IMG/VR virus record: IMGVR_UViG_3300033073_001635
Coordinates: 49,341 to 113,340 of that record
Origin: a virus
Lineage: Duplodnaviria > Caudoviricetes
DNA length: 64,000 bases
Reading direction: 5' to 3' (one strand)
Position numbers and translations under genes: made by a program. Under the pieces are notes generated by a model. The model was not told where the DNA came from and made no database searches. It worked only from the letters and a program-made list of their open reading frames with translations. Positions 14,928-64,000 of this stretch are shown one piece after another (the stretch's first letter is position 1; every line of letters starts with the position of its first letter).

Positions 14928-17900
14928 TTATTCTCCCATAAGTTGATCAAGATAACCACCTGTTAATGGTCTACGATTATCATTGATCATGATACTTGAA
15001 CTACCTCCATTTTGCAAAGCAATCTTATTCATATAATTCGCTTCTTCAATATTTCTAACGTTTCCTTTAATTAAATATGATTGATTTCTTGCAAGCATTG
15101 TACTCCCAGGACTTTGAACTCTACCAACCATATCTTTATAAAAAGGTCTTTGCATAGAGTCTGGAGACATTGATACATCTGAATTGTAATTTTGAACTTG
15201 AGCTAATTCTCTATTTTTAATTTTCTCATTTACTCTTGTATCAGTAAAAATTTCTTCAGGTCGAAGTTCTTCAGTATCATAAGAAGAAGATAATAAATAT
15301 GATGCGCCAACTACTGCTGCAGTAGCAGCAGTCATCTTCATGTTTGATAAATTAGCAATATTATCACCAATCATATTTAAAACATTTGATTGTCTATTAC
15401 CAAGTAGGTTTTCAAATAAAGCTTGTTGTTCAGGAGTACTTAAACCTTGAGATCCAACCGCAGCTTCAAGCACATCAAAATTTCTAACCAACTTTAAATA
15501 ATCTTCATTTGTAAAACGTTTATTCTTACCTGCGCTCATTAAAGCGCCTAGCATATTGTCAGAAGCGTAAGGACTTAAATTATTTGCTTTTACAGTTTTA
15601 ATAATATTTCTGAGCCCTTCAAAAATATCATCAAGATTAAATGTAATTCTCTCTTTATTTAAACCTTCTGTATAAGCTGAAGCTAATGGTTCAGGCATAT
15701 TTTCTACACTAACATTTTTTACAATTAAATCATTTAAGAAATCGGTGTCTTTAAAAACAGTTCCTCTCATAAAGTTTTCAAAATCAGTAGTATCCCCAGT
15801 TTCAAAAGCTGTGTTCAAAGTTTTAGTAAATAGCTCGCCGATATTAGTAGCTAAATCAAGAGATTTAGATTTAATAACAACAGATTCTTGAGAAGCAGAA
15901 ATCAATAATTGTGCTGCTAAATCTGTTTTTCTAAAATCATTTAAATTCATATTTCCTTTAGCTAAATTATAAGCTGCACCAACTGCTACTTTTTTAACTG
16001 CAACGTCAACAGAACCAGTACCAGCTTTAAGAATTCTTTCTTTTGAAGATTCTGATTTTAATAAATCTTGATATGTAATATTTGCAACATCCATTCTTTC
16101 TGCAACTTTTGACATTGCTTTTTTAGCAATCTCCATATTTACAACCATCATGGCACCGGTTTTTTGCATCTCTCTTATATTTCTTTGTATCTGACCCTTG
16201 AATGCATTACTGGTTTTTTCATTATTTAAAATGATTTGATAGATATCACCGTCAAAGTCACCCACTGCAGCTCTAGATATATCTGTACGTACTTTTATAT
16301 CGAAAGTATTAGATGGATCTTTTGTATTTTCAAATTTAAAAGTAGTTTCAAATTCAGGATACACTGCTCTACCAGCACCCAAACCAGTAGCTCTTGTATA
16401 ATTCTGATCATATAGATCTACAGCTTCATTAATAATATCATCTAAACTATGATATTGTTTTTCTTCAGTTAAATCTATATTTGCTATTTTATTATCTATC
16501 TCTGATATTTTAACATTTTCTTCTTCTATAAAACCTTGTAATTTTTCAATTTTTTCATTTTGCTCTAAAGTTGTTAAATCCATATTTCTCGGTGAACGAA
16601 GAATTGGTTTATAAAGTAATCTTTGAGAATCACCTTGTTCAAAATCGTCTAATTTTTGCAAAAGATTGTCTTCATTATTTTTTACTTTTTCCAATAATTG
16701 TTCTTGTTTTGTACGTACATCATCATGCTCTACATAATATGCTTCATCTTCTTCATGATAAAAATCATCATAAATAAGTTCATCCATTTCTGTAAAATAA
16801 TTATGCGCACGAATAAAGTTCTTTAATAAATCTTTATTTACTTTTTTTACAGTTATTCTCTCTGGTTCATCAGTTGGTATATGTGTACCTGTTTCAGGAT
16901 CGTAATTAGTTTTATAAACAATTTCTGATTCACCAGTTTCTTGATTATATTTAGTTAAATTAATTTCTTCTTCTTCAGTAAAAGCTTCTAATCCTAAAAT
17001 TATATCCGATTTACCTAGAAAAGTTTCTGGTTGTCTAGAAGTAATTGGCATCCCCATATCATCAAGTGCATTAACGTATGTAGGTTTACCTTCTGAATCA
17101 AGTATCACATTTCCTTCAGTATCTATTGCTAGATTTTTAAGTTCTCCCTTTTTTATTATATTACCATCAGTATCATACTCATCAAAATCAGAAGCTAATT
17201 CTTCATAATAGAAATTTGCACTAGTTTTTCGACTTAGACCATTATTTTCTAATTCATCAATTGATGAATCAATATTAAATTTTTCTCGTCTAGCTTCTTT
17301 TGCTTTTTCTTGTAAAGTAGCTAGTTTCTCTTCTTCTTCTTTAATTAACTGAGCATTTTTATTAATGCGCCCTACTTTATATTTTGTTCTTTCTTCTGCT
17401 TCGTATTTAGATATATCTTCATCTAATTCTTCTAAAGTGCTGTATTGTTTGCTTTCGTCATGATAAGTAGGTTTTGTTTTATCAGGTTTTCCATCGGGTC
17501 CTAATTCATAACCTTTGATTATTTTTACTTTAGAAAGTGCTTTCTTTTGTTTTTCACCTAAAGCCTCTTCTACTTTATTCTCTAAATGATTTTTATAAAA
17601 CTCTTTTTGATCATCATCTAACTCTTCAAAAGGTTTCATTAATCGAGTAGCAGATATTTTACCAAAAGTTGTTTGATCTGGATTCTGTTTTAAATTATCT
17701 TGAAAAGCTTTAATTAAAGCTTTGTCTTCGTCTGAATCTGTAATATTTCTAACAAATTTACCTTCATCATCAACAACATGATAATCATATTCATCACTAA
17801 AAAACGATTGAAGAAAATCTTTACGAGCTTGATAAATTTCTTGTTCTTCCCGTATGAGCATTTTAGGAATTATAGATTGTGCATAATATAACATTGAATT

Positions 17901-20900
17901 TACAAAGTTATTTGCACCTTTTGTTTTTCCTTGAATCATTGATTCTACAAATTGTTTTTTTAAAGTAAATTCTTGAATTTTTGCTTCAGAATTACTTGTA
18001 TTAGTTATTTGATCTTGGTATTTACCTTCTTTTAGATTCTCTAATAGATCAAAAAGCATTGAAGTTGCATGAAAATGATTTGTGGTTGGAACATCTGGAT
18101 CTTCCATTAATGTTTTTACAAAAGAAAACAAACTTTCAATCGCTTTCTTCTTTTCTTGTTTATGTAATTTTGAGAATGGTATCAATTTTCCATTCTCATC
18201 ATAAGTCATTGCTGTAAAATTATTTGATACATCACGCCTAAGATAATCCGAAGTAAACAATAATTCAGCAAAATCATCTTTGACTTCATGTAAAAATCTA
18301 GGCAATTCTAATAAATCTAATTGATCAGTATCAACTCCTAAAGTTCTATTTTGTTGTAAACCAAAATCTTGCAATGCAAAAATATCACTAATAGCTTGGC
18401 TATTTATTTCAGTAGGACTTATTGGACGCTTTAAATTTAAATTTTCTTTTAATGATTCTCGATACAGTTTAGAATCATTTAAAAATCTATTTAATCCTTT
18501 TTGTATGACATCTTCAGCTAGTGCAGGAGAATATCCAAAATGAGCATATGCTTCTTGTAATGTTTTGATTTCTTTATTAATACTACTAGCTTTTTCATTC
18601 ATTTTTTTATAATTAAAAATTTTAAAAAATGCTTTGTAAATAGGATTATCATTTAAATCTGAATGTTCGGTAGGATCACTACTTAATTGTTGAATATAAT
18701 TTTCTAAATAAGTATATACTGTTTTGCTATTTACACTTACTTGTTTATTTTTGTCAGAAATATATTTTACAATAGTTTTATTAGGATCATTAGGGTCTGC
18801 GTAATCAATTAAATTTCCATTCTCATCAATATTTTCAATATTATATTTTATATAATTAAACCCAGAATAAGTTCTTTCCTTGCCGTTTCTAGTTACAGTT
18901 TTTGATTCCCTATCAAAAGTTATGATTTTTCTAATTTTGTTACCTTCAGAGTCTTTTAGAAAATCAGATCCATCATGTTCATAAAAAACTTTTTGAGCAT
19001 CATCATCTAAAGAATCTATAAATGGTATAAATCTTTTAGCAACTCTAGCACGACCAAGTCCTTTGTTTTCAAGCTGTGTTCTTTCTTCAAAACTTAAATC
19101 GGAATTATTCATCTCATATAAGAAATCAAATAAATTTAATCTTGCTTTTTTATTCTTAAAAAAAGCATTAGCTTCATCTGATTGCATGGTATCTTTCATG
19201 CTTTCAAATACTTTATTAAACTCTTCTATTTTTGTTCTATTGTAAAATTCATGACTTCCAAAAGTTTCAAGAATCTCTTTATTTGTAATAGGAAAATCAG
19301 GATGTATGATTGTTAAATTTAAAAATTTCTCAGTTTGGGTTTTATAAACAGGTTTACCAAACTTATCAAGCATAGGCTTTCCTTTATTTTTTCCACTTTG
19401 ATGTAATACTTCGATTTGACTTAAAATTTCCTCTTCATGTCCACCAAAAGAATTAATAATTACTTTTTGAAAATCACGTTGTTTATTTAGTTTCTCTAAA
19501 TTACTTTTACTACGTTTACTTTGCGTCAAAAGTAATTTCAATCTATGAGATTGAAGATCAATTTCTCTATAATTTTTAATTATAGCTTCTTCATAAGTAT
19601 TGTCATATCCATATCCTCTATAATATCTATCTAAAGCATCAGTTCTTTTTATTTGATCTCCAACATTTTCAAAAGAAGTCCCTGTACTATCTAGTATCAT
19701 ATTAGGATTCAAACTGTTATAAGCATATCTAGAATCCTTACCTAATAACCTGCCTGCTTGAAGTCTTCGATTCCTATCATTTTTGATATCTTTTATATTA
19801 GAAGATTTTTGTTTATAATAATTTAAAAACCCTTTTCCTACTCTATCTACTGATTCTTCAACATTAGTATCTTTATTTATTCTAGTATAAGAAAAATTAC
19901 CTTTAAACATTTCACTTCTTTGTTGTCGTAAAGTTTGAATGAAATCTTGTTTTTGTTGTATATTCCCAGCTAAACGTTCTTGCTTTTGTTGCTTTTGATT
20001 TGAAAAGAATCTTGCTTTTGCTATTCTTTCTTGAAGATTTTCATAACTTGAAATTAGATTAGAATTTAAAGTATTTTCAATACCTTTTACATTTCTTTGA
20101 TATGCAGTTTGTAAATTAAAAATTCTTTCATTTAAATTAGAAACGTTACTTTCTATTTTATTTCTTTTATTAGTTAAATATTCCATTGTAGTTTTTTGAA
20201 AATCAAACGATAAATCTTTAAAAATACCAGTTTTGTTTAATTGATTTAAAACATTTAAAGTTTTAAAATTTAAAAAAGAAAAGTTATTTCCAGAATCGGC
20301 TGCTGATTGTATTGATTGATCAATGTAATTAATAACATCTTCGCCGCCATTCTGAATTATCTTATCTCTAAATGCACTGTTATTACCCATAAATTCAGAT
20401 AAAGATGATAAGAATATTTGCCCTTTAGTATTATAATTCAACACATCAGAATAATGAGATTCAGGTAGATTCTCCCCAATATATTTATACATATCAATAT
20501 TTAAAGCAATGTGAGACATACCTAGTTGTGGATTACGAAAATTTATACCCGAAATACCTTGAGGTTTAAAACTTCCATTTTCTAAACTATTTACTATTCT
20601 CATAGTTCCATCTGAAATTTGCAAAACATCCTCTTCCATACCAAATAAAAACTTTTTATATAGTTCTCGTTTTTCTGTTGGATCTTGTGCATTAAACGTT
20701 TTACTAGCATACATAAATGCTTGCGTATCCAAAAACATATTATAACCATTGGATTCAATAAAAGCTGCATTCATTTTTTGAAGAATTTTAGCATTATCTA
20801 AATCATCGCTTACAAATCTAGTAATTTGATCTTTTTCAGGATCACCTAAACGAACACCCTTACCTTCTAACGTTGCAGAACCAGACATTCTACCAGCTAA

Positions 20901-23900
20901 AATCTGTCGTTGCATACCCCCTAACATGTGTTGTAATTGTTTTACATGATACATTGCTTGATTTACTTTATTTGTTTGATCAACTTCTTCAGTTGAAGTA
21001 GATGCTTCTCTTAAAAAAGCAAAAATATCATTTACTTTTCTATATAATTCAGATTCAATTTTTAAATCTTTTTGATTACTTTTAATTTCAACACCAGAAA
21101 CAACATCTAAAACATTGCTTAAAGGCACTACAATTTCAGTTTTAGTTTCGCCAATTTGTTTTAAAAAGCTTTGATATGCAGCAGTATTTATATTTTCATT
21201 ACCTTCAACACCTCTAAGAAACATTTGTTGAATATCCATAACAAAGCCCATGGCTTGAGGATTTAATTCTTGTTGTTCTTTTAAAAAATTACTTAAAGCG
21301 GTAGCTGAATCAATATCAACATTTGCTCTTAAAAACTTTTTAGTAAATTCTTCATCGGCTCTAAACAAATAACCTTGACCTACAAAATCATCAATTGAAT
21401 GTTTCAAAGCACCTGCATCCATACTGGGATGCAATGACTGCCCCATTAATAGCAATGGTGTCATTGCTTGAGCTTTTTCAGCAACACCAGATTGTTTTGA
21501 AAATAATTCAGCCATATATTCTGCTGCTTCATCTTCATTCATTTGAAACATACCCATTAAATTACCCATTACAAAGTTAGCAAAACGAGGTTCTACTCTA
21601 GCCATTCTATCTTTGTTAATAGTAGATTGTGTACCAGCAAATGTAGACATTGCACCAATAAAAAATCCTCTTTCAGCAGTTTCAAAAACTACTTTTTGTT
21701 GCTCAGCAGTTAATCTTGTATTAGCTAAAAGACCTTTTAATTGATCTTTAAAAGCAACGGCTTTTTTACCAGGTTCAGTTGCTGGTTCTTTTAAATTATG
21801 GTACGCAGGAATTAACAAGTTTCCTAAAACTTCAGGAGTTACTTGTTGAGCTGTTGCGCCTGATGCAGTAGGTAATTCAGCATTATCAGCAATTAAATTA
21901 GAAAAAGTTTCAATGATATTTTCTGCTACAATCTTTTGATATTTAGGTGCATGCTGTTTTACCTTTGTATCCATTTCAGCAGCTTCAATTTTTCCTTGCA
22001 TATTAAAAACATTAGATTCAATAAAATCATCAGCATAACCTAACATTTTTAAAGAACCATAAAGTAAAGAAGACAAAAATTGTGGGCCCTTTGTAACAAC
22101 GTCCATACCTGCTAACATTGTACTTTCAATTTTACCACCAAATGTTTTCATATAAGTATTTTCAAAAAAACGACTAGCTTCTTGCATTGCAGCTTCTCTA
22201 TTTATAAATTTTCCAGTAACTGGATCTTTTTTATATAAAGCCTGCGCTAAAACATTTTTCATACCACCTTCATCAAGTATTTGTTCTTCACCAAAGAAAA
22301 CACCCTTAACAGCTTCTGAAAATATCTTACCTTCATGACTACCATAAACTTCACCAGCAATACTAAACATACCAGTTCTTTCAGTATTAACATTGGTATT
22401 CATTTTTAACTTCAAACCCATCATGCCTTTTTGTTTTTTTATCAAAGTAGGCATGTTATCTTTAAAACCTAAAACTAGATTTCCATCTTTATCTCCATAA
22501 TTTTTAAAAAAAGTTTCTAATTCACTTCCAAACAAATTAACTTCTTCACCAGCTAATATCTTTTGAAAAACATCAGATTCATAAATACTTAGATTAGTCA
22601 TCCCCTTAGTATATTGAAAAGATTTTTGTAAAGGTTCTGATACTAAATGCATACCACCTCTATATTGCATTGCATCTGCCAAACCTAATCTTTGACCTTT
22701 TTTAGCATTACTATTGAAATCTATAATTACACCAGTATTTGCACCTACTAAATCTAAATTTTGAAATTCTTTACCAACTACTAATAAATCAGCACCTTTA
22801 GTTGCAGATGTTTTAATAGAACCAGTTCTACCAAAACTTAAAGATTGCATTCCTCTTTGCATATCTTCAAAGGTTTCAAATTTAGTATTTGCAGGAAAAT
22901 AACCAAGCATAGCTTCTGGTTTAGCAAATAACTGAGCAATACGTGCAGAACCAGGTAATAAAGATTGATCTTTAATACCATGAGTTCTAGCAATATTATA
23001 AGGTATCACTGCAGGATTAGAAACGTTTTGACGTCCAAGAATTGCATTTGGATCAAGTATTACAGCTTGTTGTTCAAAAGAAGTGCTCTTTAATTCCTTT
23101 CTAATTGTACCTGCTTGACCTTGTGCAGGACCAAAAATACCAATATTTAAAGATACTAATTCATTTAAATCTACAGGAAATTGACCACCTGTTTTACCTC
23201 TATTAAAAAAATAAGCAGTATTTGACATTATTTGAATGCCGTGCTTTTGTTGAATACCAGCATAACCAAAATTCATTTGACCATGCGTAGGGTAATATTG
23301 AGTTAAACCAGAAAGAACTTCCATAAAAGAATTTCTTTCAGCTTGATTCATATAATGAATGTCTTCTGGAGAATAAGTTTTTAATAAATTAATTGCAAAA
23401 TCTTCAAAAGAAGATTTAGGCATTTTTTTTGCAAAAATATTTCTAGCAATTTTTTGTTTTTCAGCAAGATTCGCACCCTTACTAACTTCAGCAAAATCTG
23501 CTGCATCAAAATAATGATTATGTGCAACCTTTGCATTTCCGTAATCACTAGATAATCTTACATATCTTCCATGTGTACCTTCAGCAGCCATTAAAGGAAT
23601 TATTAATGGTTGTTTTGAAGATCTATTATGAGTAGAACTTATTCTAGCATAAACACCATATGCATCTTCATTAGCTTCTTTTATAATATCAAAAGAAACT
23701 TTAAAATTAGGATTATTATTTCCCAATCTCAAATGATCACTAATTATATTAAATCTATTTAGAACAGTGTTCTTTACTTCGTTACTTTTACCTTTAAAAA
23801 TACTCCATAGCTGATCATCTTGTAAAGATGATGCAGTTAAATTTTGTTTATGATAAATTGTATTCACATTCTTTTGCGCACTAAAAGTTTCGAATGGATT

Positions 23901-24596
23901 AGTGATAGTTACATTTCCACCATTATTAGTTCTTCGAGAGCTAGTAGATATTAAATGTGCAACACTAGAATTTTTTTGATGTAAACTAACATATTTTTCT
24001 TCGAGCGTTTTATTACTTCTAATTGAATCTAAAAAACCTGCTATATCTGCTTTGTCAGCATCACTCATTCTAGAAGAATCTTCAATTGCACCTCGAACCT
24101 TTGTTATTAATTTAGCTTTAGCTTCTTCATCTAAAGCTAAATCAGGATCATTAACCATATCTAATATAACTGATAAATGACTAATTCTTTGATTTTCTTT
24201 TGCAGCTAAAATTTCATCTAATTTTGATCGAGCATCTACAGTAGCCATTTCATCAAATAAATTAAGTGTAACTTCTTTTGCTTTCTCTTTTGCTAAAGCA
24301 TTTCTAGCTTGATAATCACTAATTGATCTATCTCTAATAGCTTTACCAATTTTTCTAGTAGGTAATGCAGTGTCTTCCTTTATCCCACTAGAATTCATAA
24401 AATTAGTTAAATTTCTAACACCAGGAATAGGGTTCTTCATATTAGGATTATCATTTGCAAATCCTAAGTAACCTGCACCTAAAACAAAAGAAGCACCACC
24501 AATAGTTTTTAAAACATCAAAACTATTTCTTGCAAAAGCTCTACGTTCTTCTGTGTCTTTTTTATAAACATTATAAATTAAACTTGGATTTGTCAT
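14928..24596 (-). CDS. Putative single-chain two-barrel (DPBB) RNA polymerase, probably virion-associated
   Basis: Catalytic GDFDGD (D2780-D2784, nt 16245-16259), FRNPQL RxP motif (R1354), beta-like lysine pair GKIFSEAVKG (K757/K764); located in the tail operon. Confidence 0.7.
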   Translation of the reverse strand: MTNPSLIYNVYKKDTEERRAFARNSFDVLKTIGGASFVLGAGYLGFANDNPNMKNPIPGVRNLTNFMNSSGIKEDTALPTRKIGKAIRDRSISDYQARNALAKEKAKEVTLNLFDEMATVDARSKLDEILAAKENQRISHLSVILDMVNDPDLALDEEAKAKLITKVRGAIEDSSRMSDADKADIAGFLDSIRSNKTLEEKYVSLHQKNSSVAHLISTSSRRTNNGGNVTITNPFETFSAQKNVNTIYHKQNLTASSLQDDQLWSIFKGKSNEVKNTVLNRFNIISDHLRLGNNNPNFKVSFDIIKEANEDAYGVYARISSTHNRSSKQPLIIPLMAAEGTHGRYVRLSSDYGNAKVAHNHYFDAADFAEVSKGANLAEKQKIARNIFAKKMPKSSFEDFAINLLKTYSPEDIHYMNQAERNSFMEVLSGLTQYYPTHGQMNFGYAGIQQKHGIQIMSNTAYFFNRGKTGGQFPVDLNELVSLNIGIFGPAQGQAGTIRKELKSTSFEQQAVILDPNAILGRQNVSNPAVIPYNIARTHGIKDQSLLPGSARIAQLFAKPEAMLGYFPANTKFETFEDMQRGMQSLSFGRTGSIKTSATKGADLLVVGKEFQNLDLVGANTGVIIDFNSNAKKGQRLGLADAMQYRGGMHLVSEPLQKSFQYTKGMTNLSIYESDVFQKILAGEEVNLFGSELETFFKNYGDKDGNLVLGFKDNMPTLIKKQKGMMGLKLKMNTNVNTERTGMFSIAGEVYGSHEGKIFSEAVKGVFFGEEQILDEGGMKNVLAQALYKKDPVTGKFINREAAMQEASRFFENTYMKTFGGKIESTMLAGMDVVTKGPQFLSSLLYGSLKMLGYADDFIESNVFNMQGKIEAAEMDTKVKQHAPKYQKIVAENIIETFSNLIADNAELPTASGATAQQVTPEVLGNLLIPAYHNLKEPATEPGKKAVAFKDQLKGLLANTRLTAEQQKVVFETAERGFFIGAMSTFAGTQSTINKDRMARVEPRFANFVMGNLMGMFQMNEDEAAEYMAELFSKQSGVAEKAQAMTPLLLMGQSLHPSMDAGALKHSIDDFVGQGYLFRADEEFTKKFLRANVDIDSATALSNFLKEQQELNPQAMGFVMDIQQMFLRGVEGNENINTAAYQSFLKQIGETKTEIVVPLSNVLDVVSGVEIKSNQKDLKIESELYRKVNDIFAFLREASTSTEEVDQTNKVNQAMYHVKQLQHMLGGMQRQILAGRMSGSATLEGKGVRLGDPEKDQITRFVSDDLDNAKILQKMNAAFIESNGYNMFLDTQAFMYASKTFNAQDPTEKRELYKKFLFGMEEDVLQISDGTMRIVNSLENGSFKPQGISGINFRNPQLGMSHIALNIDMYKYIGENLPESHYSDVLNYNTKGQIFLSSLSEFMGNNSAFRDKIIQNGGEDVINYIDQSIQSAADSGNNFSFLNFKTLNVLNQLNKTGIFKDLSFDFQKTTMEYLTNKRNKIESNVSNLNERIFNLQTAYQRNVKGIENTLNSNLISSYENLQERIAKARFFSNQKQQKQERLAGNIQQKQDFIQTLRQQRSEMFKGNFSYTRINKDTNVEESVDRVGKGFLNYYKQKSSNIKDIKNDRNRRLQAGRLLGKDSRYAYNSLNPNMILDSTGTSFENVGDQIKRTDALDRYYRGYGYDNTYEEAIIKNYREIDLQSHRLKLLLTQSKRSKSNLEKLNKQRDFQKVIINSFGGHEEEILSQIEVLHQSGKNKGKPMLDKFGKPVYKTQTEKFLNLTIIHPDFPITNKEILETFGSHEFYNRTKIEEFNKVFESMKDTMQSDEANAFFKNKKARLNLFDFLYEMNNSDLSFEERTQLENKGLGRARVAKRFIPFIDSLDDDAQKVFYEHDGSDFLKDSEGNKIRKIITFDRESKTVTRNGKERTYSGFNYIKYNIENIDENGNLIDYADPNDPNKTIVKYISDKNKQVSVNSKTVYTYLENYIQQLSSDPTEHSDLNDNPIYKAFFKIFNYKKMNEKASSINKEIKTLQEAYAHFGYSPALAEDVIQKGLNRFLNDSKLYRESLKENLNLKRPISPTEINSQAISDIFALQDFGLQQNRTLGVDTDQLDLLELPRFLHEVKDDFAELLFTSDYLRRDVSNNFTAMTYDENGKLIPFSKLHKQEKKKAIESLFSFVKTLMEDPDVPTTNHFHATSMLFDLLENLKEGKYQDQITNTSNSEAKIQEFTLKKQFVESMIQGKTKGANNFVNSMLYYAQSIIPKMLIREEQEIYQARKDFLQSFFSDEYDYHVVDDEGKFVRNITDSDEDKALIKAFQDNLKQNPDQTTFGKISATRLMKPFEELDDDQKEFYKNHLENKVEEALGEKQKKALSKVKIIKGYELGPDGKPDKTKPTYHDESKQYSTLEELDEDISKYEAEERTKYKVGRINKNAQLIKEEEEKLATLQEKAKEARREKFNIDSSIDELENNGLSRKTSANFYYEELASDFDEYDTDGNIIKKGELKNLAIDTEGNVILDSEGKPTYVNALDDMGMPITSRQPETFLGKSDIILGLEAFTEEEEINLTKYNQETGESEIVYKTNYDPETGTHIPTDEPERITVKKVNKDLLKNFIRAHNYFTEMDELIYDDFYHEEDEAYYVEHDDVRTKQEQLLEKVKNNEDNLLQKLDDFEQGDSQRLLYKPILRSPRNMDLTTLEQNEKIEKLQGFIEEENVKISEIDNKIANIDLTEEKQYHSLDDIINEAVDLYDQNYTRATGLGAGRAVYPEFETTFKFENTKDPSNTFDIKVRTDISRAAVGDFDGDIYQIILNNEKTSNAFKGQIQRNIREMQKTGAMMVVNMEIAKKAMSKVAERMDVANITYQDLLKSESSKERILKAGTGSVDVAVKKVAVGAAYNLAKGNMNLNDFRKTDLAAQLLISASQESVVIKSKSLDLATNIGELFTKTLNTAFETGDTTDFENFMRGTVFKDTDFLNDLIVKNVSVENMPEPLASAYTEGLNKERITFNLDDIFEGLRNIIKTVKANNLSPYASDNMLGALMSAGKNKRFTNEDYLKLVRNFDVLEAAVGSQGLSTPEQQALFENLLGNRQSNVLNMIGDNIANLSNMKMTAATAAVVGASYLLSSSYDTEELRPEEIFTDTRVNEKIKNRELAQVQNYNSDVSMSPDSMQRPFYKDMVGRVQSPGSTMLARNQSYLIKGNVRNIEEANYMNKIALQNGGSSSIMINDNRRPLTGGYLDQLMGE

Positions 24597-55506: not shown

Positions 55507-58500
55507 TTACATCCTAGTGTGATTTTGTTTTAAGTGAATTAAAGCTTTATGTTGAGCATTTTGCATATTGTTAAATCTTCTAGCTCTAATTGCTTTATTA
55601 GTTGTTTGATTTGTTATTTTTGTAATTTCAGAATTATTGCTTGTTGTTTGTACAGTTTCTATTAAATCAATATTATTCTGTAACATTTGTCCAGAATATT
55701 TAAGTTTATTTTCAACATCTTTACTACCTTTAGTTTCTATTAAACGTTTTAAATCATATTGTAAACTAGGCATATGTTCATTATGTCTAGCCATTTTTCT
55801 ATGTTGATCAAAATCTGCATCAAAAGGTCTAATATTCTTTTTTTGAGAATATTTCTTTTTTAAATCTTCTGAAATTAAAACACTAGGTTCAATAGAAACT
55901 TGCCTAGTATTATTCTTAATTTCATTAAAAGTTTGATCCATTTCTTCTCTATGAAAGTCAGATATTCTACCTTGTTTTTGCGCACTTAACATAATACCTA
56001 ATATATTAGTTAAATTTGCGTTTTCAGCACTTTTAGTTTTATTTGCAAAAGTATTAAAAGTAACAGTTTGTTGAGTTTGTTTATTCATTTCATTATATAC
56101 TTGAAAAAATGGTTCACTCCACATACCTCGACGTTGTTCTACTGCATATTTTTGAGCGGCACTAAAAGCTTTTTCATTGTACATTTGCTCTTGACCTTTA
56201 CCTTCATAAGGTAAGTAAGCAACCGCACCTCTCTTTAATAATTCTAAATTTAAATTTCTGTCTCCAGCAAATAAAGTAGCAACTTGACGTCCATAAGTAA
56301 TATTTGTTGGATCAAATACTAAAGACAATTCTTTTCCTTGCATTAAAGATTTCAACATTTCTTTTGAAATCTCAGCATGTGGCTGTGCTGCTCTTTCATC
56401 ATGTGAAGTTTCAGGAGCATCAATACCAGCCAAACGAAATGAATAATTACCGCTACCCATAAACTTAGAAAGAGGATTATCTGTAACGCCCTTTCTTTGT
56501 AATGTAATAGTATCGGCGTCTTCTACTGAGATATGAAAATCATCTTTGTTTATTACTAAACGCTTTAAATTATTACCTTTTAAACTTAATAATTGTTCTT
56601 GAGTTAATCCTTGATTAGGGCTAGCAAATTCTCTAAATATCTCTCTCATTTCAGGTTTGTAAGCTACGTGACTTCTTAAAAGATTAAATATATCTCCTCT
56701 TTCAGTAAAATGTCTTTCGTTAAACATATAAGAAGAATATTTTTGGCGTTCTCTTATTAATTCTTGATCTTCAAAAACACTATATGATGTTGCAGGACCT
56801 TGATAAGGAGAACCGAAATCTGTATTTACTTTACGCATTAAAGATGCTAAACCATTTTCAGCCAAACCATCATTTTCTGCAAAATATTTATCTTTAATTG
56901 CAGTTTTAAAATTACTTTCAGATCCAAAAAATTTCTTTTGATTTTCAAACCATCTATCATAACTAGGAGAAAGATTAGATGTTTCACTTGCCTTTGTTAA
57001 AGGTGAATCTTGAACTAAACTTAATGTAGCTAAAGCAGCTGCACCAACACCATACATACCAAAAAATTTTAAGCCTGCAGGAGAACTAGCAAATTCTGTA
57101 AATACTTTATTTAAACCATTATCAAAATTTTGTTCAATAATAGTATTTGCAATATTATCTAACTCGGAAACACTTAAACCAGCAGGTAATGCTTTTATAT
57201 TGCTAGCTGCAGTTTCTAATGCAACTGCACTAGGTTGCAAGAATGGTTTAGATTGTATATTCTCTGGTACTTTTCTATCAAAAACATAATTCTTTATTTC
57301 TTTTTCAGTATATAAAGGCACAGCACCTTTATCGTTTTTTGGCATATTAAAAGATTCTTCTAATCTAAAATTCAAATCAGCATATCTTTTAGCTTGTTCA
57401 TTTAAATCTACTGAAGCATCATGCGCAGGATCCGTATAAGTAGCACCATAAGAAGTTTTTATTTCACCATAATCTATATAATTTCTAAAACCAGACTTAT
57501 AATCTCCTAAAGTTTTTTGGTTATAAACAGGCACTTTATTTAAATCTTGTTCAAATTTTAAATTCGTATCGCCTAAATCAATTTGTCTTTGAGCAGATTG
57601 TTCAATTACTTTTTTTGTTAACTCTCCATAATTTGAAGCTCTTGATGTTACATATTGTTTTGAATCCATTACTTGACCAGTGGTTTCGTAATGTTTTATC
57701 TCAAAAAAAGCTCTTCCAAAAGCAGCTTCTCTATTTGTTTCAGGCGGAGTAATAAAAATTTTTTCATTTTTTTGTGCAACTAATGGTTCTCCTGCAAGAA
57801 ATTTTTCTTTAGCTAAATTAATTTCCGCTTCAGAATAACCACTAGTAGTTTTCTGATAACCAGGTTCAGCAACAAATGCATGATGTTGTATTTCATTAAT
57901 CATCGCTTCAACAGGTATTGGTTTTGATCTAGATTGTAATAAACTAGCTGTATGTTTGTGTTCTGTAGCTTTTTTAATTACATCTCTGATTTTCTCAGTA
58001 GTCTTTACTTCATGCGGTTTTTTAAATTTTTCTAAATTTAATTGAGGTAATTTTTTTGGAGTTCTTGATGTTAAAGACAAATCTACTCTATTTGTAAAGT
58101 CAGAAGATATAAACCTTTCAGATAATGATTCAAATCCTTTTATTAAATCGTGTACTTTATTACCTCTAGTACTTAAAAAATTCTTTAGATCTGCACGTTT
58201 TTTTATTGCAGTTTCACTTTGTTTTCTACTATCTAATAGATCAGAATCAAATTCATAAGATTCACCGGTATGATAAATAAAATTTCTCTCTAGTAATTCT
58301 TGTTCTAAAGTTTCTATTTCTTTAGCTCTACCTGAGTAATTATATAAATTGTTTTGAATTAAACTCTTTTTAAAAGAATTATAAGAAGCAATTATCTTTC
58401 TATTATAAGATGGTGTCTTTATTTTTTCAGTAACAATAGTATCTGAATACAAGCTTTTTAATTGTTGAACATTCTCTTCTGGAACTCCTTGATTCCTTAA

Positions 58501-60357
58501 AACTTGTTCTGCGCTTTGAATATGTTGTTGTTCTCTATATAAAGGTGTTTCAGTTAATTGAGAAGCTGAAATTTGTGCGGTATCTGCAATTTCTCCTAAA
58601 TCTGAAACAATTCTAGATTGTAAATTAATTTCTTGAATCTTAGGTACAATCTCTTCAAAAATTTTAGAATATGTAGCCGCTCTATATAAAGGGTCTGTTC
58701 TTTTTAAATTTTTTATATGTGCTATTTTTTCTTCTTCTGACATTTTAGAAAAACGTGACAAAGCTTCTGCTTGCACTACTGATTCTCTTAATACTATATT
58801 TTCATGTATTAAAGTATCCAAACCTGCAGTGTGAGTTTCTTTAAAACTAGAAAGTATTTCTTTTAATTCTGCTTCTGGAGCGTTTTCACTTAAAGCATTT
58901 GTAAACATATACAAACGAGATTGTGCTTCAATTGAAAGCCCTAAAGGAGACGAGACGTTTGAAAGTAAACCTTCTTTAACCAACATAGATTGTTGGGATC
59001 TAATTACATCTTGAATATCTCTTGCACTGCCTGGTTTTGTAGTTTGAAAAAATACATCAGAAACATTGCTATAATCACCATGTACTCTTGCTTCTGCTAG
59101 AGCAGCATTATACTCAATGCCAGTAGAGTAAAAAGGTTCACCAGTAGAAGCAGATGCAGGGATTCCTGCAATAGTCATAAATGGATTATTTTTTATAAAT
59201 GCACGACTTCTTAAATCTGCAATTTGACGTTTAGTTAAAGAAACGTTATCTGGGATTGCATTTTCTTTTCTATAAGCTTCCTCTGCAAGAATCATTTCCT
59301 CTCTTGCTTCAGAAGCAATTTGTGAACCAAATTTTTTCGCTTCAAATTTAATATTAGCAACATAAAGAGCTTTGTTTTTCATTAGCTGTGCTAATTGTTG
59401 TTGCATTTGTTTCATTGAAACATTGGTATGCACATTTATTTTAACATCTTTTGTTAAACCGGAAATTCTTTGACTAGAATATTTAAATTTAGAAAAGTAA
59501 TCTTGCATCAAAGCATTAAAAGTACTTGAATCGTATTGCATATTTCTAGTACGCATATACCTTAAATACTCTGCTTCAGCAGGATTTGAAGTTAAAAATT
59601 TATTAAAACTTTCAGAACCTTCCAATATATATCTTGAAAGAAACGGTTCATCTCTCTCAAACGCAGCATGCAACCCAACTTCTTTTAATAATCTAGTATC
59701 TTCTAATTGAGGATTTAAAGCATCGTTTTCTATTAACAAAGTTTCTGCTTTTAAAATTTCATTAGCAGCGCTAGAATCCTTATCAAAATTTTTTACTTTA
59801 ATTAATTTCTTTTCTAAAGATTCTATTTGATTCTGTAATACAGTATCTAAATTATTAAAATAGGTAGCATTTCTTTTTAAATTTTTTATATTTTCAAGTA
59901 TTTCATTGTAACTATTCTTATTCATTAAATAGTCAACAATAGCAATATCTCTAAAAGACATCTGCTTTACTAAATCAGGATGCATGCCTTTCAATACATT
60001 TACTTGATTCAACTTAGAAGAGGAAACCATATTGGCATTAGTATCTTCTAATTTTCTAATTAAATTAGCTTCCGGAATAAATATATTTAATTCATTTTGC
60101 TCTAAATTGAATAAAGCAACTTCATGCATAGATTCAGTTTTTAAACCTAGAGTTTCAATATCTAAAATCGCTGCATTTTTTAAAATATCTTTAGAATCAG
60201 TAAAAGGTAAAGACTTAGTATCTAAGGTACTAGTTGCTACTTGCTGTTCTCTTTTTTGAATTTGAAAAATAAAACTTTCTGATTCAGAAAAAGCAAGACT
60301 TGATTTAGAAGTATCTAAGGGTTTGTAAGTAGTTCTGAGATATTTTTGCTGTGTCAT
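55507..60357 (-). CDS. Large protein with N-terminal DEDDh 3'-5' exonuclease and C-terminal SNase (thermonuclease) domains
   Basis: ExoI ILDIETLG (D66), ExoII-like ANIKFE, ExoIII HTAGLD (H509/D514); SNase EDADT (D1280), RLAGIDAPE, YGRQVA, LNLELLKRG, RRGMWS. Confidence 0.75.
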   Translation of the reverse strand: MTQQKYLRTTYKPLDTSKSSLAFSESESFIFQIQKREQQVATSTLDTKSLPFTDSKDILKNAAILDIETLGLKTESMHEVALFNLEQNELNIFIPEANLIRKLEDTNANMVSSSKLNQVNVLKGMHPDLVKQMSFRDIAIVDYLMNKNSYNEILENIKNLKRNATYFNNLDTVLQNQIESLEKKLIKVKNFDKDSSAANEILKAETLLIENDALNPQLEDTRLLKEVGLHAAFERDEPFLSRYILEGSESFNKFLTSNPAEAEYLRYMRTRNMQYDSSTFNALMQDYFSKFKYSSQRISGLTKDVKINVHTNVSMKQMQQQLAQLMKNKALYVANIKFEAKKFGSQIASEAREEMILAEEAYRKENAIPDNVSLTKRQIADLRSRAFIKNNPFMTIAGIPASASTGEPFYSTGIEYNAALAEARVHGDYSNVSDVFFQTTKPGSARDIQDVIRSQQSMLVKEGLLSNVSSPLGLSIEAQSRLYMFTNALSENAPEAELKEILSSFKETHTAGLDTLIHENIVLRESVVQAEALSRFSKMSEEEKIAHIKNLKRTDPLYRAATYSKIFEEIVPKIQEINLQSRIVSDLGEIADTAQISASQLTETPLYREQQHIQSAEQVLRNQGVPEENVQQLKSLYSDTIVTEKIKTPSYNRKIIASYNSFKKSLIQNNLYNYSGRAKEIETLEQELLERNFIYHTGESYEFDSDLLDSRKQSETAIKKRADLKNFLSTRGNKVHDLIKGFESLSERFISSDFTNRVDLSLTSRTPKKLPQLNLEKFKKPHEVKTTEKIRDVIKKATEHKHTASLLQSRSKPIPVEAMINEIQHHAFVAEPGYQKTTSGYSEAEINLAKEKFLAGEPLVAQKNEKIFITPPETNREAAFGRAFFEIKHYETTGQVMDSKQYVTSRASNYGELTKKVIEQSAQRQIDLGDTNLKFEQDLNKVPVYNQKTLGDYKSGFRNYIDYGEIKTSYGATYTDPAHDASVDLNEQAKRYADLNFRLEESFNMPKNDKGAVPLYTEKEIKNYVFDRKVPENIQSKPFLQPSAVALETAASNIKALPAGLSVSELDNIANTIIEQNFDNGLNKVFTEFASSPAGLKFFGMYGVGAAALATLSLVQDSPLTKASETSNLSPSYDRWFENQKKFFGSESNFKTAIKDKYFAENDGLAENGLASLMRKVNTDFGSPYQGPATSYSVFEDQELIRERQKYSSYMFNERHFTERGDIFNLLRSHVAYKPEMREIFREFASPNQGLTQEQLLSLKGNNLKRLVINKDDFHISVEDADTITLQRKGVTDNPLSKFMGSGNYSFRLAGIDAPETSHDERAAQPHAEISKEMLKSLMQGKELSLVFDPTNITYGRQVATLFAGDRNLNLELLKRGAVAYLPYEGKGQEQMYNEKAFSAAQKYAVEQRRGMWSEPFFQVYNEMNKQTQQTVTFNTFANKTKSAENANLTNILGIMLSAQKQGRISDFHREEMDQTFNEIKNNTRQVSIEPSVLISEDLKKKYSQKKNIRPFDADFDQHRKMARHNEHMPSLQYDLKRLIETKGSKDVENKLKYSGQMLQNNIDLIETVQTTSNNSEITKITNQTTNKAIRARRFNNMQNAQHKALIHLKQNHTRM

Positions 60358-61091
60358 TTCGCATCATCCAAGAGAATTTCATCTTTTACAACTATAACAT
60401 TCTCTTGTGCAATTAATAAAGCTTCTCTAAGTTTTTGAATTTCGCCTAAAACCTTTGAATTTTGATTTTCATTACCTAATCTAGAAACAAAATCTGCTTT
60501 AGACTTTCTAGTTTCCATCAATTTTTCTAACCAACGTTCTCTTCTTCTCTCTAATTTATCAATTAATTCTAACAATGGATGTAATTTAGTTTGAGTAGCT
60601 ACATCTCCATTTTCATTAAAACCAGTAATTTCAGTTAAAAGAAAATCTCTACCAAAACCATTCTTATCTCCATTGCTCAAAACAGTAATAGAACGTTGTT
60701 TATATAAATCAATTAAAGCTAACTCATTAATAATACTCATCTCTACAGGGTTGGAAGGATCTACATCTAAATGCTGTATATAATCTATAATCTGTTGCTC
60801 TACAAAATTTTTCTCTAAAACACAAGACATACCAATAGGATAGTCTTGTAAATTTGCTTTTTGAATCTTGCCATTGACATCTACATCGTTAATTGGACAA
60901 CTAGCAAAAAAAGGACATTTATCTGGGCCATGACAAGTCAAGGGAGAAGCAGTATAAACTCCTTGATTTTTTAAATTAACTGCAATTTTAGATTTTTTTT
61001 CTTCAGTTAATTTATTTAAATAATTGTCATATCTAGAATTACTATTTCCTAATTTATTAAAATATTCTAATTGACGTGCTTCTTTAGACAT
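60354..61091 (-). CDS. Putative terminase small subunit
   Basis: First gene of the packaging/structural module; Cys cluster CHGPDKCPFFASC..C; helical C-terminus with LHP motif. Confidence 0.4.
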   Translation of the reverse strand: MSKEARQLEYFNKLGNSNSRYDNYLNKLTEEKKSKIAVNLKNQGVYTASPLTCHGPDKCPFFASCPINDVDVNGKIQKANLQDYPIGMSCVLEKNFVEQQIIDYIQHLDVDPSNPVEMSIINELALIDLYKQRSITVLSNGDKNGFGRDFLLTEITGFNENGDVATQTKLHPLLELIDKLERRRERWLEKLMETRKSKADFVSRLGNENQNSKVLGEIQKLREALLIAQENVIVVKDEILLDDAK

Positions 61092-61173
61092 AAAATTTCC
61101 TTATAGGCGATTTTTTTTGGTTAATTATTTTTTTAGAATACTGCTTTTTTCAGAATTAATAAAGCGAAAAATA

Positions 61174-61299
61174 CAGACCACCCCGGTCTACTATTAGTAA
61201 TTTTAAATATAGTGTCGATTGGGGGGAGGTAATATATATATTGCGCCAGAACTTTTCATTCTTTTTCAGCCCACCCCGGTGCTAGGTACATGTCGTACC
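61174..61299. promoter_or_regulatory. GC-rich repeated/hairpin motifs in divergent intergenic region
   Basis: CAG(A/C)CCACCCCGGT at 61174-61187 and 61267-61280; hairpins AGACC-ACCCC-GGTCT and GGTAC-ATGTC-GTACC; G6 run at 61221-61226. Confidence 0.45.
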
Positions 61300-61341
61300 A
61301 AGAAGAGTTGCAATCACCTGTACACAGAAAGGATTTCATAA

Positions 61342-62310
61342 ATGTACACTTTTTTCCTCAATTTTCTAAGTTGCTTTGTATTCTCCGAAAAAGAAGCAAA
61401 CCTAGGAAGTCTAGGCTATGTCCTAGGTCGTTTAACCATACCAATTCTCTTGCTTCACGTAAGCATCGAATGTGGTTCGTACTATTGTGTACCCCTTAAT
61501 GGTTTCCTTGGAATTATTGTTTTAGGTTGTCAAACCAGTAATCTACCAATCTTCTATGTTGCTGCAACTGAACGCTTTGAAGTGGAAGCGGCAAAAAGCA
61601 TAGATAAGCTGACATCTCTAATCATTATGATTCAAACAGTGCTCACCCTTGTAATTCTTTCAGGTACTTATCAAGATCCCAACTTGGTAGTAGTAGCTCC
61701 TGATGAAATTAATGCCTTCTCTAAAAGCGCTTTCTTCCATGAGAAAGTGTTAAGTAAAGAAGAGCTGATTTCTTACTGGAAAGAAAAAGAAGGTGCACTT
61801 GATGTTTCTAAGGAAATCTCTGAAGATTTCCTTAAACAACAGCATGATCTCAGAGTGTTCTTTTTAAAGAATCCTCAAGTTTGTATTGTAGGTGTTCCTG
61901 AACCCTATATGGGAGCTTTTGAAGCTACCAGAGGGTTAACTAGGCTTTTGTGGTCAGTACCACAAGCTTGGTATCATGAAAGAATGCACAGTTGCAAAAT
62001 TGGTTTATCTTTTTCCCATGGAGATAATGATCATATTAAAGTTCTCTCTTCCAAGAGGGCTTCAAAGGGTCATGATTCTGCCAGATGGATAGCTGCAGAA
62101 GACATGAAAAAAGCTTTTTCTCAGATAGATCTTGTGTTTATCACCTGTAGAGGTGATAGAGAACCTTTCTATGAAGGGGATTTTATCCTAGATCATCAAA
62201 CTGCAATTTGGTGGTCTACGGAAAAAGGCAGATCAACATCTGCTGATTGGCTATGGCATGTATACAATAACGGCAATTTGCAAAAATTTGTAGATATGTA
62301 TCGTTATTAA
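61342..62310 (+). CDS. Hypothetical membrane protein, 322 aa
   Basis: SD AAAGGA; several N-terminal hydrophobic segments and a soluble C-terminal domain. Confidence 0.65.
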   Translation: MYTFFLNFLSCFVFSEKEANLGSLGYVLGRLTIPILLLHVSIECGSYYCVPLNGFLGIIVLGCQTSNLPIFYVAATERFEVEAAKSIDKLTSLIIMIQTVLTLVILSGTYQDPNLVVVAPDEINAFSKSAFFHEKVLSKEELISYWKEKEGALDVSKEISEDFLKQQHDLRVFFLKNPQVCIVGVPEPYMGAFEATRGLTRLLWSVPQAWYHERMHSCKIGLSFSHGDNDHIKVLSSKRASKGHDSARWIAAEDMKKAFSQIDLVFITCRGDREPFYEGDFILDHQTAIWWSTEKGRSTSADWLWHVYNNGNLQKFVDMYRY

Positions 62311-62335
62311 ACTCTTTACAACAACCCTTAACAGG

Positions 62336-62387
62336 GAGGTCCACAGGTAGTGCCCTGTGCTGATGATGGCTTAGAAGCCGAAACCTC
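62336..62387 (+). ncRNA. Type III hammerhead ribozyme, copy 1 (cleavage after C62341)
   Basis: GAGGUC / stem I CACAGG-UAGUGC-CCUGUG / CUGAUGA / U / stem II GGCU-UAGA-AGCC / GAAA / CCUC closing stem III. Confidence 0.93.
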
Positions 62388-62422
62388 AGAAAACAAAACC
62401 CAAAACAAAAAGGAAGTCCCAT

Positions 62423-62632
62423 ATGGCTACTCTCAACTATAAAGACAGACATGGCAACAAAATGAGCGTATTGAACGTTCCAGTCGAAGTTGCGCAATCA
62501 TTAATTCTTAACAAAAAGCAATTCAACAAAATTAACCGATCTTGGTTAAGAAACGAAGAAGCAAATGTGGTATTTGATTGTTGCTGTTCCGAAAAAGTAG
62601 ATTACTTAATTTGGAGTCGTTTCTCTAAGTAA
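62423..62632 (+). CDS. 69-aa hypothetical protein between two hammerheads
   Basis: SD AAAGGA after an unstructured A/C-rich leader; the ORF fills the inter-ribozyme space. Confidence 0.7.
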   Translation: MATLNYKDRHGNKMSVLNVPVEVAQSLILNKKQFNKINRSWLRNEEANVVFDCCCSEKVDYLIWSRFSK

Positions 62633-62659
62633 TCGATTAACAAAAAAACCTTTTAAAAG

Positions 62660-62711
62660 GAGGTCCATGCGTAGTGCCGCATGCTGATGATGGCTTAGAA
62701 GCCGAAACCTC
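62660..62711 (+). ncRNA. Type III hammerhead ribozyme, copy 2 (cleavage after C62665)
   Basis: GAGGUC / stem I CAUGCG-UAGUGC-CGCAUG / CUGAUGA / U / GGCU-UAGA-AGCC / GAAA / CCUC; three compensatory pair changes relative to copy 1. Confidence 0.93.
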
Positions 62712-62772
62712 AGAACACACACTTGTAAGAGTCTTTAAGTTTAAAGACTTTAAATAAATAAACTTATCTCAA

Positions 62773-63384
62773 ATGTTAAAATCAATTATTTTCAGTTTAA
62801 TTTTCAGTATTTTATGTTTTGTAGTTTTAGACTACAAAACGCTGGTTTTCTTAAACAATGTTGTCATTCTATTGGTGCCAATATATGGAGCACCAATGTT
62901 TGTTGGTAAACCTGAGAAATGTAAAGACCCAATTATCATCTTATTTTTAATGGTATTTGCTTTCTCATTTTGTATTAGCCCAATCAAAATGATGTCTTCT
63001 CAAGAGAAACAACAATTACCTTGTAAAGGGTATATTGATCCTGAATTGGAAAGTAAATTCAACTATTTGCCAGAATATTCTCACAAATGCACCAGTGTGT
63101 TTCATGCTGGTCATGGAAGAATTGTAAATGGAGTACATCTACTCAGTTACAAAGATGTAGAATATTCTACAAGAGATATGATCGACCAATACAAACAAAA
63201 GAAGCAATATGTCTTTTCTTGTAGAGGAAAACAAAATCCAATATTGGATTTGATGAAACTGAATATCTCGTTTTTGTTTCAAGACAAAAACATTGAAGAG
63301 CAAGATGATAAAGAGATTATTTGGTTTGCCAAAGAAGGCACATTATTAGTGTCACTAATAAGTGTATGGGTCGATTTTAATTAA
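62773..63384 (+). CDS. Hypothetical membrane protein, 203 aa
   Basis: Two to three N-terminal hydrophobic helices. Confidence 0.65.
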   Translation: MLKSIIFSLIFSILCFVVLDYKTLVFLNNVVILLVPIYGAPMFVGKPEKCKDPIIILFLMVFAFSFCISPIKMMSSQEKQQLPCKGYIDPELESKFNYLPEYSHKCTSVFHAGHGRIVNGVHLLSYKDVEYSTRDMIDQYKQKKQYVFSCRGKQNPILDLMKLNISFLFQDKNIEEQDDKEIIWFAKEGTLLVSLISVWVDFN

Positions 63385-63436
63385 CACATGTAACCGTCTA
63401 GCTTAAAGACATTAAAGAAAAGCAAAGGATGAAATC

Positions 63437-64000
63437 ATGGATGTTTTGTTTATGAAAAAAGTTTCTGCTATTGATTTAATTGATAGCGTTGAGAAAGCAA
63501 AGAGTGTCACTTCTCAGCCTTGTACATCTCAGGGGATGTTTAGGGAAGTTTGGGTGGGTAATTATGGAGTATTGAAGAAAGGCAAAGATGTACCTGGAGG
63601 AGGTTTTGATATCTCTCTTGGGGGAGGAGAGATGAATAGGAGGGAATTTGAAGTGTGGACAAAGTATAACCATCTTGGTCTTTTGGCAAAAATCAATTGG
63701 GTCTCTCCTGATAATTTATATTTGTCCATGGAAAAGTTGAATATGAACGAAGGCTTGAAAAACAAAGCAATTAAAGATCTATTCTTTGATTTTTGGGTAG
63801 ACCAAAATGACGACAGAGAATCTGCTATCAATTGTTTAAACAGGGTGAAACTAGTGTTGTGGGCTTTATTAAAAGCTAACAACGAAAGAAAGTTGGCAAC
63901 TTATTTGATTAAATTGAATGGCTTTGATGGGTTGATGAACCCAGGAAAAGTCGATTTAAATAGGGAAATCTATGGGAAGTTATTACAACTTCCCAAAGAT
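63437..64000 (+). CDS. Partial ORF, protein kinase-like N-lobe
   Basis: Read manually: SD AAAGGA, ATG 63437, frame open to the window end; SQGMFREVW, VLKK, NRREFEVW, LLAKI..YLSMEK. Confidence 0.55.
   Translation, partial: MDVLFMKKVSAIDLIDSVEKAKSVTSQPCTSQGMFREVWVGNYGVLKKGKDVPGGGFDISLGGGEMNRREFEVWTKYNHLGLLAKINWVSPDNLYLSMEKLNMNEGLKNKAIKDLFFDFWVDQNDDRESAINCLNRVKLVLWALLKANNERKLATYLIKLNGFDGLMNPGKVDLNREIYGKLLQLPKD

Follow-up and report, generated by a model that had tools for sequence, protein, structure and literature searches.

The stretch analysed here is a 64,000-nucleotide (nt) window that forms the last 64 kb of a linear, 113,340-bp virus record (IMG/VR record IMGVR_UViG_3300033073_001635; 69% complete according to CheckV), window coordinate 64000 being the end of the contig. 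Over the first ~28.5 kb of the contig the genes are plus-stranded; a minus-strand block encoding structural proteins comes next. At window position 61.2 kb, divergent from the structural block, a plus-strand unit begins. The subject of this work is that unit, together with two hammerhead ribozyme motifs that it contains and their putative role in processing the phage transcript.

Downstream of a region of conserved elements, the unit comprises, from 5' to 3', (i) an open reading frame (ORF) of 322 amino acids (aa) that has a hydrophobic N-terminus and belongs to no known family (61342–62310), (ii) hammerhead 1 (62336–62387), (iii) a 69-aa ORF (62423–62632), (iv) hammerhead 2 (62660–62711), (v) a 203-aa ORF for a predicted membrane protein of no known family (62773–63384), (vi) a gap without a ribozyme (63385–63436), and (vii) a possibly kinase-like ORF (63437–64000), of which the contig holds the first 188 of 214 residues. 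The full form of the last protein is P0005; its gene stops 26 codons beyond the window, as seen in two contigs, L133 and L139, that continue the sequence.

Structure and detection of the two hammerhead motifs

Both motifs are 52 nt long, intergenic, and oriented in the same direction as the flanking ORFs. Each consists of three helices (stem I of 6 bp, stem II of 4 bp and stem III of 5 bp), arranged in the order stem III strand GAGGU, the GUC triplet with C17, stem I with its loop UAGUGC, CUGAUGA, one extra U, stem II, GAAA, and ACCUC. The core nucleotides by which the hammerhead class is recognized (C3 U4 G5 A6 N7 G8 A9, G12 A13 A14, an A15.1-U16.1 pair, and H17, which is not G) are present in both copies. 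Indeed, the catalytic core of each is complete: C3 U4 G5 A6 U7 G8 A9, G12 A13 A14, the A15.1-U16.1 pair and C17, that is, CUGAUGA ... GAAA with an A-U closing pair and C17 within the GUC triplet. Stem III is open and stems I and II are closed by loops, which is the type III topology, and the minimum-energy fold of each 52-mer is a three-way junction (−16.6 kcal/mol, given for hammerhead 1). Cleavage is predicted between positions 62341 and 62342 in hammerhead 1, and between 62665 and 62666 in hammerhead 2.

Over their 52 nt, the two copies differ solely in stem I, which is CACAGG/CCUGUG in hammerhead 1 and CAUGCG/CGCAUG in hammerhead 2; stem II is GGCU/AGCC with loop UAGA in both. The stem I differences concern three base pairs, each changed on both sides and hence compensatory (C-G to U-A, A-U to G-C, and G-C to C-G). 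Both copies also carry one extra U between A9 and G10.1. The hammerhead of the viroid CChMVd contains an insertion at the same position, an extra A10, and changing this A10 to U raised cleavage 3–4 fold, such that a U there is reported to be compatible with cleavage and even to make it faster (PMC3705267). The setting is different, in that CChMVd is a viroid RNA with rolling-circle replication and the motifs described here lie in the messenger RNA (mRNA) of a DNA phage. Since the orthologous copies in a relative of this phage (L136) lack the U after A9, the extra U looks neutral. Judged by sequence and predicted fold, both motifs are genuine type III hammerheads. The cleavage sites predicted from a structural descriptor, a purpose-built covariance model (R1), and direct reading of the sequence coincide with the two proposed in a preliminary description of the window, at 62341 and 62665.

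The descriptor, which requires the three stems plus the core, picks out these two sites and no others when both strands of the 113-kb contig are searched; its background, with looser stem limits, is five sites in 100 shuffled genomes. The Rfam type III model (RF00008, Hammerhead_3) gives no match to the motifs or to the whole contig, even at E<=10, and so the motifs do not reach its gathering score of 48.5 bits. No hammerhead and no other ribozyme class was obtained from Rfam in the window at gathering score, or in 61000–64000 at E<=10. IMG/VR contains no match to the exact 28-nt core string, while a loose core pattern matched more than 120 IMG/VR contigs. The type III hammerhead is complete in 42 of the 121 loci examined, almost always with the same U following A9, and Rfam treats these much as it does the motifs in the window: one (L107) scores 27 bits, with the extra U handled as an insertion, and the others are missed. 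The silence of Rfam is a limit of RF00008 and not of the motif; the phage subclass is missed as a whole. We take RF00008 to be based on type III hammerheads of viroids, satellites and plants. The phage motifs have the same topology, the same 13 core nucleotides and the GUC triplet (52 nt, against a model of 54 positions), and differ from it in the extra U between A9 and G10.1 and in phage-specific loops, their match being worse than E=10. The loop sequences follow a consensus common to more than 40 IMG/VR contigs.

Model R1 was built from 24 hammerheads of unrelated IMG/VR contigs, with the window and its relatives left out. It scores hammerhead 1 at 50.6 bits (E 6e-11) and hammerhead 2 at 49.5 bits (E 1e-10) over 232 kb, and finds no further match in the 113-kb contig. 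A scan for more intergenic copies had been proposed with the Rfam model; that model returns none in the contig. The hammerhead-bearing relatives have three to seven copies in the same operon.

The hammerhead array and the genes between its members

Relatives were recovered via the 322-aa first operon gene and the divergent 245-aa gene, and more contigs via the 214-aa protein. The closer relatives (245-aa protein 67–92% identical) carry 3–5 hammerheads in the same operon, all intergenic and on the operon strand. In L136, six or seven are found within 3.6 kb (55–113, 495–547, 1319–1370, 1643–1697, 3111–3168, and a weak one at 3595–3650), with a hammerhead in each gap except the junction of the 219-aa and 214-aa genes. 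Contigs L133 and L139 are 100% identical to window positions 62686–64000 and extend beyond the window end. Hammerhead 3 (50.8 bits; L133 1422–1479) lies 25 nt after the stop of the 214-aa gene, and hammerhead 4 (39.6 bits) lies past a 1885-aa and a 129-aa gene on the same continuation; no hammerhead is found in the 11.6 kb beyond it, where plus-strand genes are tightly packed. The two motifs of the window therefore belong to an array of at least four hammerheads in this phage, the third and fourth just beyond the contig end.

When 20 copies from the clade are aligned, compensatory changes are seen in 14 of the 15 pairs, and 94.9% of cells are paired, compared with 34–44% when the partners are slid; these counts are partly circular, the copies having been found by structure-aware searches and the alignment having been fitted to the structure. 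All clade copies are intergenic and run in the same direction as the genes. The motifs, their conservation and covariation, and their positions are direct observations.

Three independent Logan assemblies (L133, L134 and L135) start at window position 62686, 2 nt into a 32-nt stretch that hammerheads 1 and 2 have in common. Ribozymes repeated in this way break up short-read assemblies, and this may also explain why the window contig ends just 5' of hammerhead 3.

The gene slots between the hammerheads are mosaic among the relatives. The 69-aa and 214-aa genes are 93–96% identical to their counterparts in L136 (93% for the 69-aa gene, which is hammerhead-flanked there too), while the 203-aa slot holds a 219-aa gene of 33% identity. 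The 322-aa ORF shares 62% identity with the gene that opens the operon in L001 and L122, and its slot in L136 is occupied by an unrelated 237-aa gene. A 106-aa gene is present in some relatives and absent from others. The window also contains a cassette, set between two near-identical hammerheads, that L122 lacks.

The gap between the 203-aa and 214-aa genes (63385–63436) is of a different kind. The preliminary description had placed a possible pseudoknot here and, more generally, a structured RNA candidate in every intergenic gap. Neither is supported: this gap offers only a 4–5 bp hairpin (z −2.3) with no Rfam match, and its sequence is invariant in the relatives, hence there is no covariation by which to judge it. 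The 203-aa/214-aa junction is devoid of a hammerhead in every relative that has it, and for this reason the two genes are probably left together on a single message. A terminator-like element, consisting of a 12-bp hairpin with a U-rich run after it, is found 40 nt into the 203-aa ORF (62815–62850, plus strand), and may be a chance occurrence or an internal attenuator.

No PHROGs or Pfam match was obtained for the 322-, 69- and 203-aa ORFs, or for a giant plus-strand ORF beyond the ribozyme-rich region (1885 aa, L139:2256–7913; 1829 aa, L122:974–6463, minus strand), the L122 form of which contains a HELDH (HExxH-like) motif near residue 300. The last gene of the window had been described as kinase-like. 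In favour of this, motifs are readable in the 214-aa protein that could correspond to the strand-3 lysine (VLKK with K47/K48), the HxDxxxxN-type loop (WDLHYSN with D192 and N197) and the DFG-type aspartate (ILDYAG with D210) of protein kinases, and a language-model (Atlas) search leads to a T7 kinase 0.7-like cluster (score 0.96) and to Bud32 (TM 0.49). Against it, no match is found in Pfam (E<=10), among PDB profiles, or to T7 gp0.7 by hhalign, and the AlphaFold model is unusable (predicted local distance difference test, pLDDT, 37). The kinase assignment is only a lead. Further along, ~16 kb beyond the window end, neighbouring genes on the continuation contig (L139:16695–19643) encode adenylosuccinate synthetase, Lyase_1 and 2OG-Fe(II) oxygenase domains; the first of these could be a PurZ-type enzyme for 2-aminoadenine DNA.

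The operon start and the DFDGD protein

The hairpin/repeat region noted in the preliminary description upstream of the first gene is real and conserved. A CAG[A/C]CCACCCCGGT repeat occurs at 61174 and 61267, the first copy of which is a hairpin. This first CCACCCCGG copy (61173–61191, plus strand) pairs AGACC with GGUCU around an ACCCC loop, and on the minus strand is terminator-like, followed by a T run. It is followed by GGGGAGGT and a TATATA box (61219–61245, plus strand), a candidate promoter or operon leader start that is invariant in six relatives, and then by the likewise invariant TTTT-N-AGCCCACCCCGGT (61262–61280, plus strand), 47 nt after GGGGAGGT (44 in one relative). The two invariant elements, GGGGAGGT/TATATA and, 47 nt on, AGCCCACCCCGG, are G/C-rich and set in an AT-rich spacer (61219–61280, plus strand). 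The same operon-start elements are found in L122, L123, L124, L125, L128 and L136. One other copy of GGGGAGG exists in the 113-kb contig, within the 63437–64000 ORF, and no other copy in the contig has a TATA box after it. Beyond the clade, the leader motif is found in one other viral contig only (L145), which has neither hammerheads nor the DFDGD protein described below and looks unrelated to the clade.

We regard the GGGGAGGT/AGCCCACCCCGG elements as a candidate promoter for a phage polymerase, or as a candidate protein or RNA binding site. No sigma-70 promoter stands out 5' of the operon, where there are fewer such sites than in shuffles. In L128 and L136 one hammerhead starts inside the TTTT-N-AGCCCACCCCGGT motif, from which it follows that the motif lies in the transcribed 5' leader; the hammerhead there would cut off the 5' leader itself. 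A small upstream ORF ending in SPPR across AGCCCACCCCGG was considered and rejected, given that start codons, frames and ribosome-binding site are not conserved in the relatives.

The structural block on the opposite strand encodes a portal, a major head protein, a terminase large subunit and a sheath-like tail protein, as well as three giant proteins of 1494, 3222 and 3467 aa. The 3467-aa protein (3308–13711, minus strand) has an endolysin-like PHROG match (residues 3075–3154) and a weak Peptidase_M15 signal (residues 857–917), and is probably a giant protein that is ejected and degrades the cell wall. Second in the minus-strand block is a gene (55507–60357) for a protein of 1616 aa, conserved in relatives (1612 aa in L001), in which Pfam recognizes a staphylococcal nuclease domain (residues 1307–1415; E 5e-16).

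The 3222-aa protein (14928–24596, minus strand), encoded among tail genes, is the DFDGD protein that the preliminary description had paired with the ribozymes as a virion RNA polymerase. It contains GDFDGDIYQ at residues 2779–2787. GDFDGD(I/L)YQ and an upstream GxGRxxxP are kept in a homologue of just 24% identity, DxDGDxYQ is the consensus of a family with at least 120 cluster representatives (mostly 1650–3265 aa), and IGDxDGDxYQ is the consensus across 24 aligned members. Most family members share only the last ~490 residues, which run from GGGxxxFP through IGDxDGDxYQ to a conserved C-terminal INDxRRPIT tail. The protein possesses a family-conserved motif of the DxDxD type, which in two-barrel RNA polymerases binds metal.

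According to an interpretation that couples the two, an injected virion RNA polymerase (the DFDGD protein) transcribes the operon first, and the ribozymes then mature its transcripts without host factors. The conserved motifs fit this proposal, as does the position of the gene among those for tail and ejected proteins. So does the invariant promoter-like GGGGAGGT with its TATATA box, which is unlike a sigma-70 promoter and, as a combination, unique in the contig. There are also precedents: gp96 of phage P23-45, a virion polymerase fused to the tape measure, transcribes pre-early genes (PMC10770324), and the crAss-like phage phi14:2 has gp66 (bioRxiv 10.1101/2020.03.07.982082). With these two-barrel polymerases the DFDGD protein has in common its giant size, a DxDxD-type motif and a tail/ejected-protein locus. 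It differs from them in showing no detectable sequence similarity and no confident fold similarity, and in that its DxDGD motif lies near the C-terminus, whereas that of P23-45 gp96 is N-terminal; furthermore, no ribozyme link is reported for P23-45 or phi14:2.

Direct searches, by sequence and by fold, for the two double-psi beta-barrel domains of such polymerases do not strengthen the case. The 3222-aa protein has no sequence match, to an RNA polymerase or otherwise, in Pfam, PHROG or PDB, and its C-terminal half has no tblastn match in 50,697 phage records. The model of its last 523 residues (2700–3222) has a pLDDT of 60, falling below 50 around the motif; searched against PDB, it yields nothing by Foldseek at E<=0.001 and no clear match by VIA-align, and in this C-terminal fold search the rows for RNA polymerase large subunits reach only Z 4.3–5.3, noise level among helical bundles. 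Co-occurrence of the hammerheads and the DFDGD protein was checked in 12 records, and on this small sample it fails: G005 (73% complete) has a DFDGD homologue and no hammerhead in 108 kb, and five unrelated multi-hammerhead phage records, among them three with a completeness of 90% or more and two proviruses, lack the DFDGD family. In addition, the hammerhead subclass is widespread, its loose core pattern occurring in those more than 120 unrelated viral contigs. The 3222-aa protein is a candidate RNA polymerase, as yet unproven; a functional link between it and the ribozymes is not supported, and we consider the coupled arrangement unlikely.

A still broader claim can be formulated, for which our expectation is a little lower again. 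Here the array, including the copy that removes the triphosphate-bearing 5' leader, would be a built-in mRNA maturation system for the first-expressed genes; their transcripts would be made by the injected RNA polymerase of the tape-measure locus, and each cassette of a rapidly shuffled host-takeover region would receive its own message, with a 5'-OH end and a hairpin cap, independent of host ribonucleases (RNases). At the level of a system this is speculation. If true, it would be a natural counterpart to synthetic ribozyme insulators that doubles as a junction for cassette exchange.

Proposed transcript processing and comparison with known systems

The reading that we favour, with more confidence than doubt, is simpler: the hammerheads self-process a polycistronic phage mRNA into separate messages. 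The array lies in the gene-variable opening section of a long transcription unit on the plus strand. During transcription, each ribozyme would fold and cut itself after its GUC triplet, turning the long transcript into messages of one or two genes. A 5'-OH would mark the start of each downstream message, in which stem I, base-paired from nucleotide 1 onwards, would precede stem II and then an A-rich leader carrying a ribosome-binding site. Each upstream message would end in a 2',3'-cyclic phosphate, a few nucleotides past a small, weak hairpin: CCCU/UAAC/AGGG before hammerhead 1 (62325–62336, plus strand), which would form the 3' end of the upstream cleavage product, and CCUUUU/AAAAGG before hammerhead 2 (62649–62660, plus strand). 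A small hairpin of this type recurs upstream of most GGAGGUC hammerheads. With its 5'-OH enclosed in a hairpin, such a downstream message should withstand RNases that depend on the 5' end. The likely effect is that neighbouring, exchanged genes would be expressed, and their messages would persist, independently of each other and of host RNases; from the mosaic slots between the ribozymes, it follows that each exchanged cassette would be independent of its neighbours. Cleavage in vivo, an effect on stability or translation, and early timing are what we infer here. That a polycistronic RNA is cut into messages with a 5'-OH and a 5' hairpin had been put forward in the preliminary description, and it fits both the anatomy of the motifs, with stem I starting at nucleotide 1, and a published hypothesis on clusters of phage hammerheads (PMC3088659; PMC6765202).

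Several points weigh against self-processing. The silence of RF00008 and the partial circularity of the covariation counts have been given above. For the hairpins at the 3' ends of the upstream products, folding energies are no better than those of shuffled sequences and do not support a role as stabilisers of those products. Finally, two distant relatives, G004 and G005 (245-aa protein 52% identical), share the operon start and are without any hammerhead in their 40 and 108 kb, respectively, which indicates that the array is dispensable.

The mosaic slots also lend themselves to an explanation at the level of DNA, in which the hammerheads are mainly module boundaries: ~50-bp linkers for cassette swaps by homologous recombination, with RNA cleavage secondary or hitchhiking. 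The pattern of exchange described above (69-aa and 214-aa genes at 93–96% identity, the 203-aa slot at 33%, the 322-aa gene replaced and the 106-aa gene variable) fits this explanation, the extra cassette relative to L122 is bounded by near-identical hammerheads, and assemblies break inside the shared 32-nt stretch. Yet there would be no need for a pure linker to preserve the catalytic core or, by compensatory changes, the three helices, and the variation of stem I between neighbouring copies lowers DNA homology rather than raising it. We judge this explanation improbable.

The 5'-OH and 2',3'-cyclic phosphate ends that hammerheads leave are substrates of RtcB, which counts in favour of a last possibility, namely that hammerhead pairs release gene-sized RNAs (e.g., the 324 nt of 62342–62665) that are then circularised, end joined to end, through reversal of the ribozyme reaction or by a ligase of the RtcB type. 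The identical stem III strands of hammerheads 1 and 2 would allow the ends of the 69-aa segment to pair and rebuild a nicked hammerhead, and Perreault et al. raised the possibility, but we give it very little weight, since those authors obtained no spliced or circular products when they looked for them with tandem phage hammerheads (PMC3088659), the copies of L123 and of L124 vary in their stem III sequences, and the segments between hammerheads range from ~0.3 to >7 kb.

Self-processing of the transcript can be set beside several known systems. The early polycistronic mRNA of T7, which carries host-takeover genes including a protein kinase, is cut by RNase III at intergenic structured sites into stable, separate messages. 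T7 relies on a host enzyme for these cuts and on the host RNA polymerase for its early genes, whereas the RNA described here would cut itself; its early timing and its kinase are putative. RiboJ is an engineered insulator derived from a plant satellite RNA hammerhead, which removes variable 5' context and leaves a 5'-OH and a structured start. Unlike RiboJ, the arrays described here are natural, and their insulating effect is putative.

The closest counterparts are the clustered prophage hammerheads reported by Perreault et al. in 2011 (Agrobacterium tumefaciens ardA locus, Clostridium scindens and Azorhizobium caulinodans), which flank genes and for which a role in mRNA processing was proposed; three of them cleaved in vitro (PMC3088659). 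A 2019 review regards the processing role as still unproven and calls for more work on bacterial and phage hammerheads (PMC6765202). As in the prophage clusters, several intergenic hammerheads lie in one transcription unit and flank single genes or short blocks of varying identity, and the proposed role is the same, the division of long phage transcripts into gene-length mRNAs. The differences are that (i) the array described here is denser (at least four members, and six or seven in 3.6 kb in L136) and entirely of type III, (ii) in some relatives it would cut the 5' leader, (iii) it belongs to a large, uncultured tailed phage and not to a prophage, and (iv) its self-cleavage is putative.

Given that the Rfam type III model misses the subclass, phage hammerheads are probably under-counted in annotation pipelines. 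The array layout has been known in phages since 2011, and what we describe is most likely a dense example of that known arrangement rather than a new, polymerase-linked system. Within it, the clade is an unusually clear natural case, with up to seven ribozymes, in nearly every gap of one operon, and mosaic genes between them, and one that makes the processing and insulation hypothesis directly testable.

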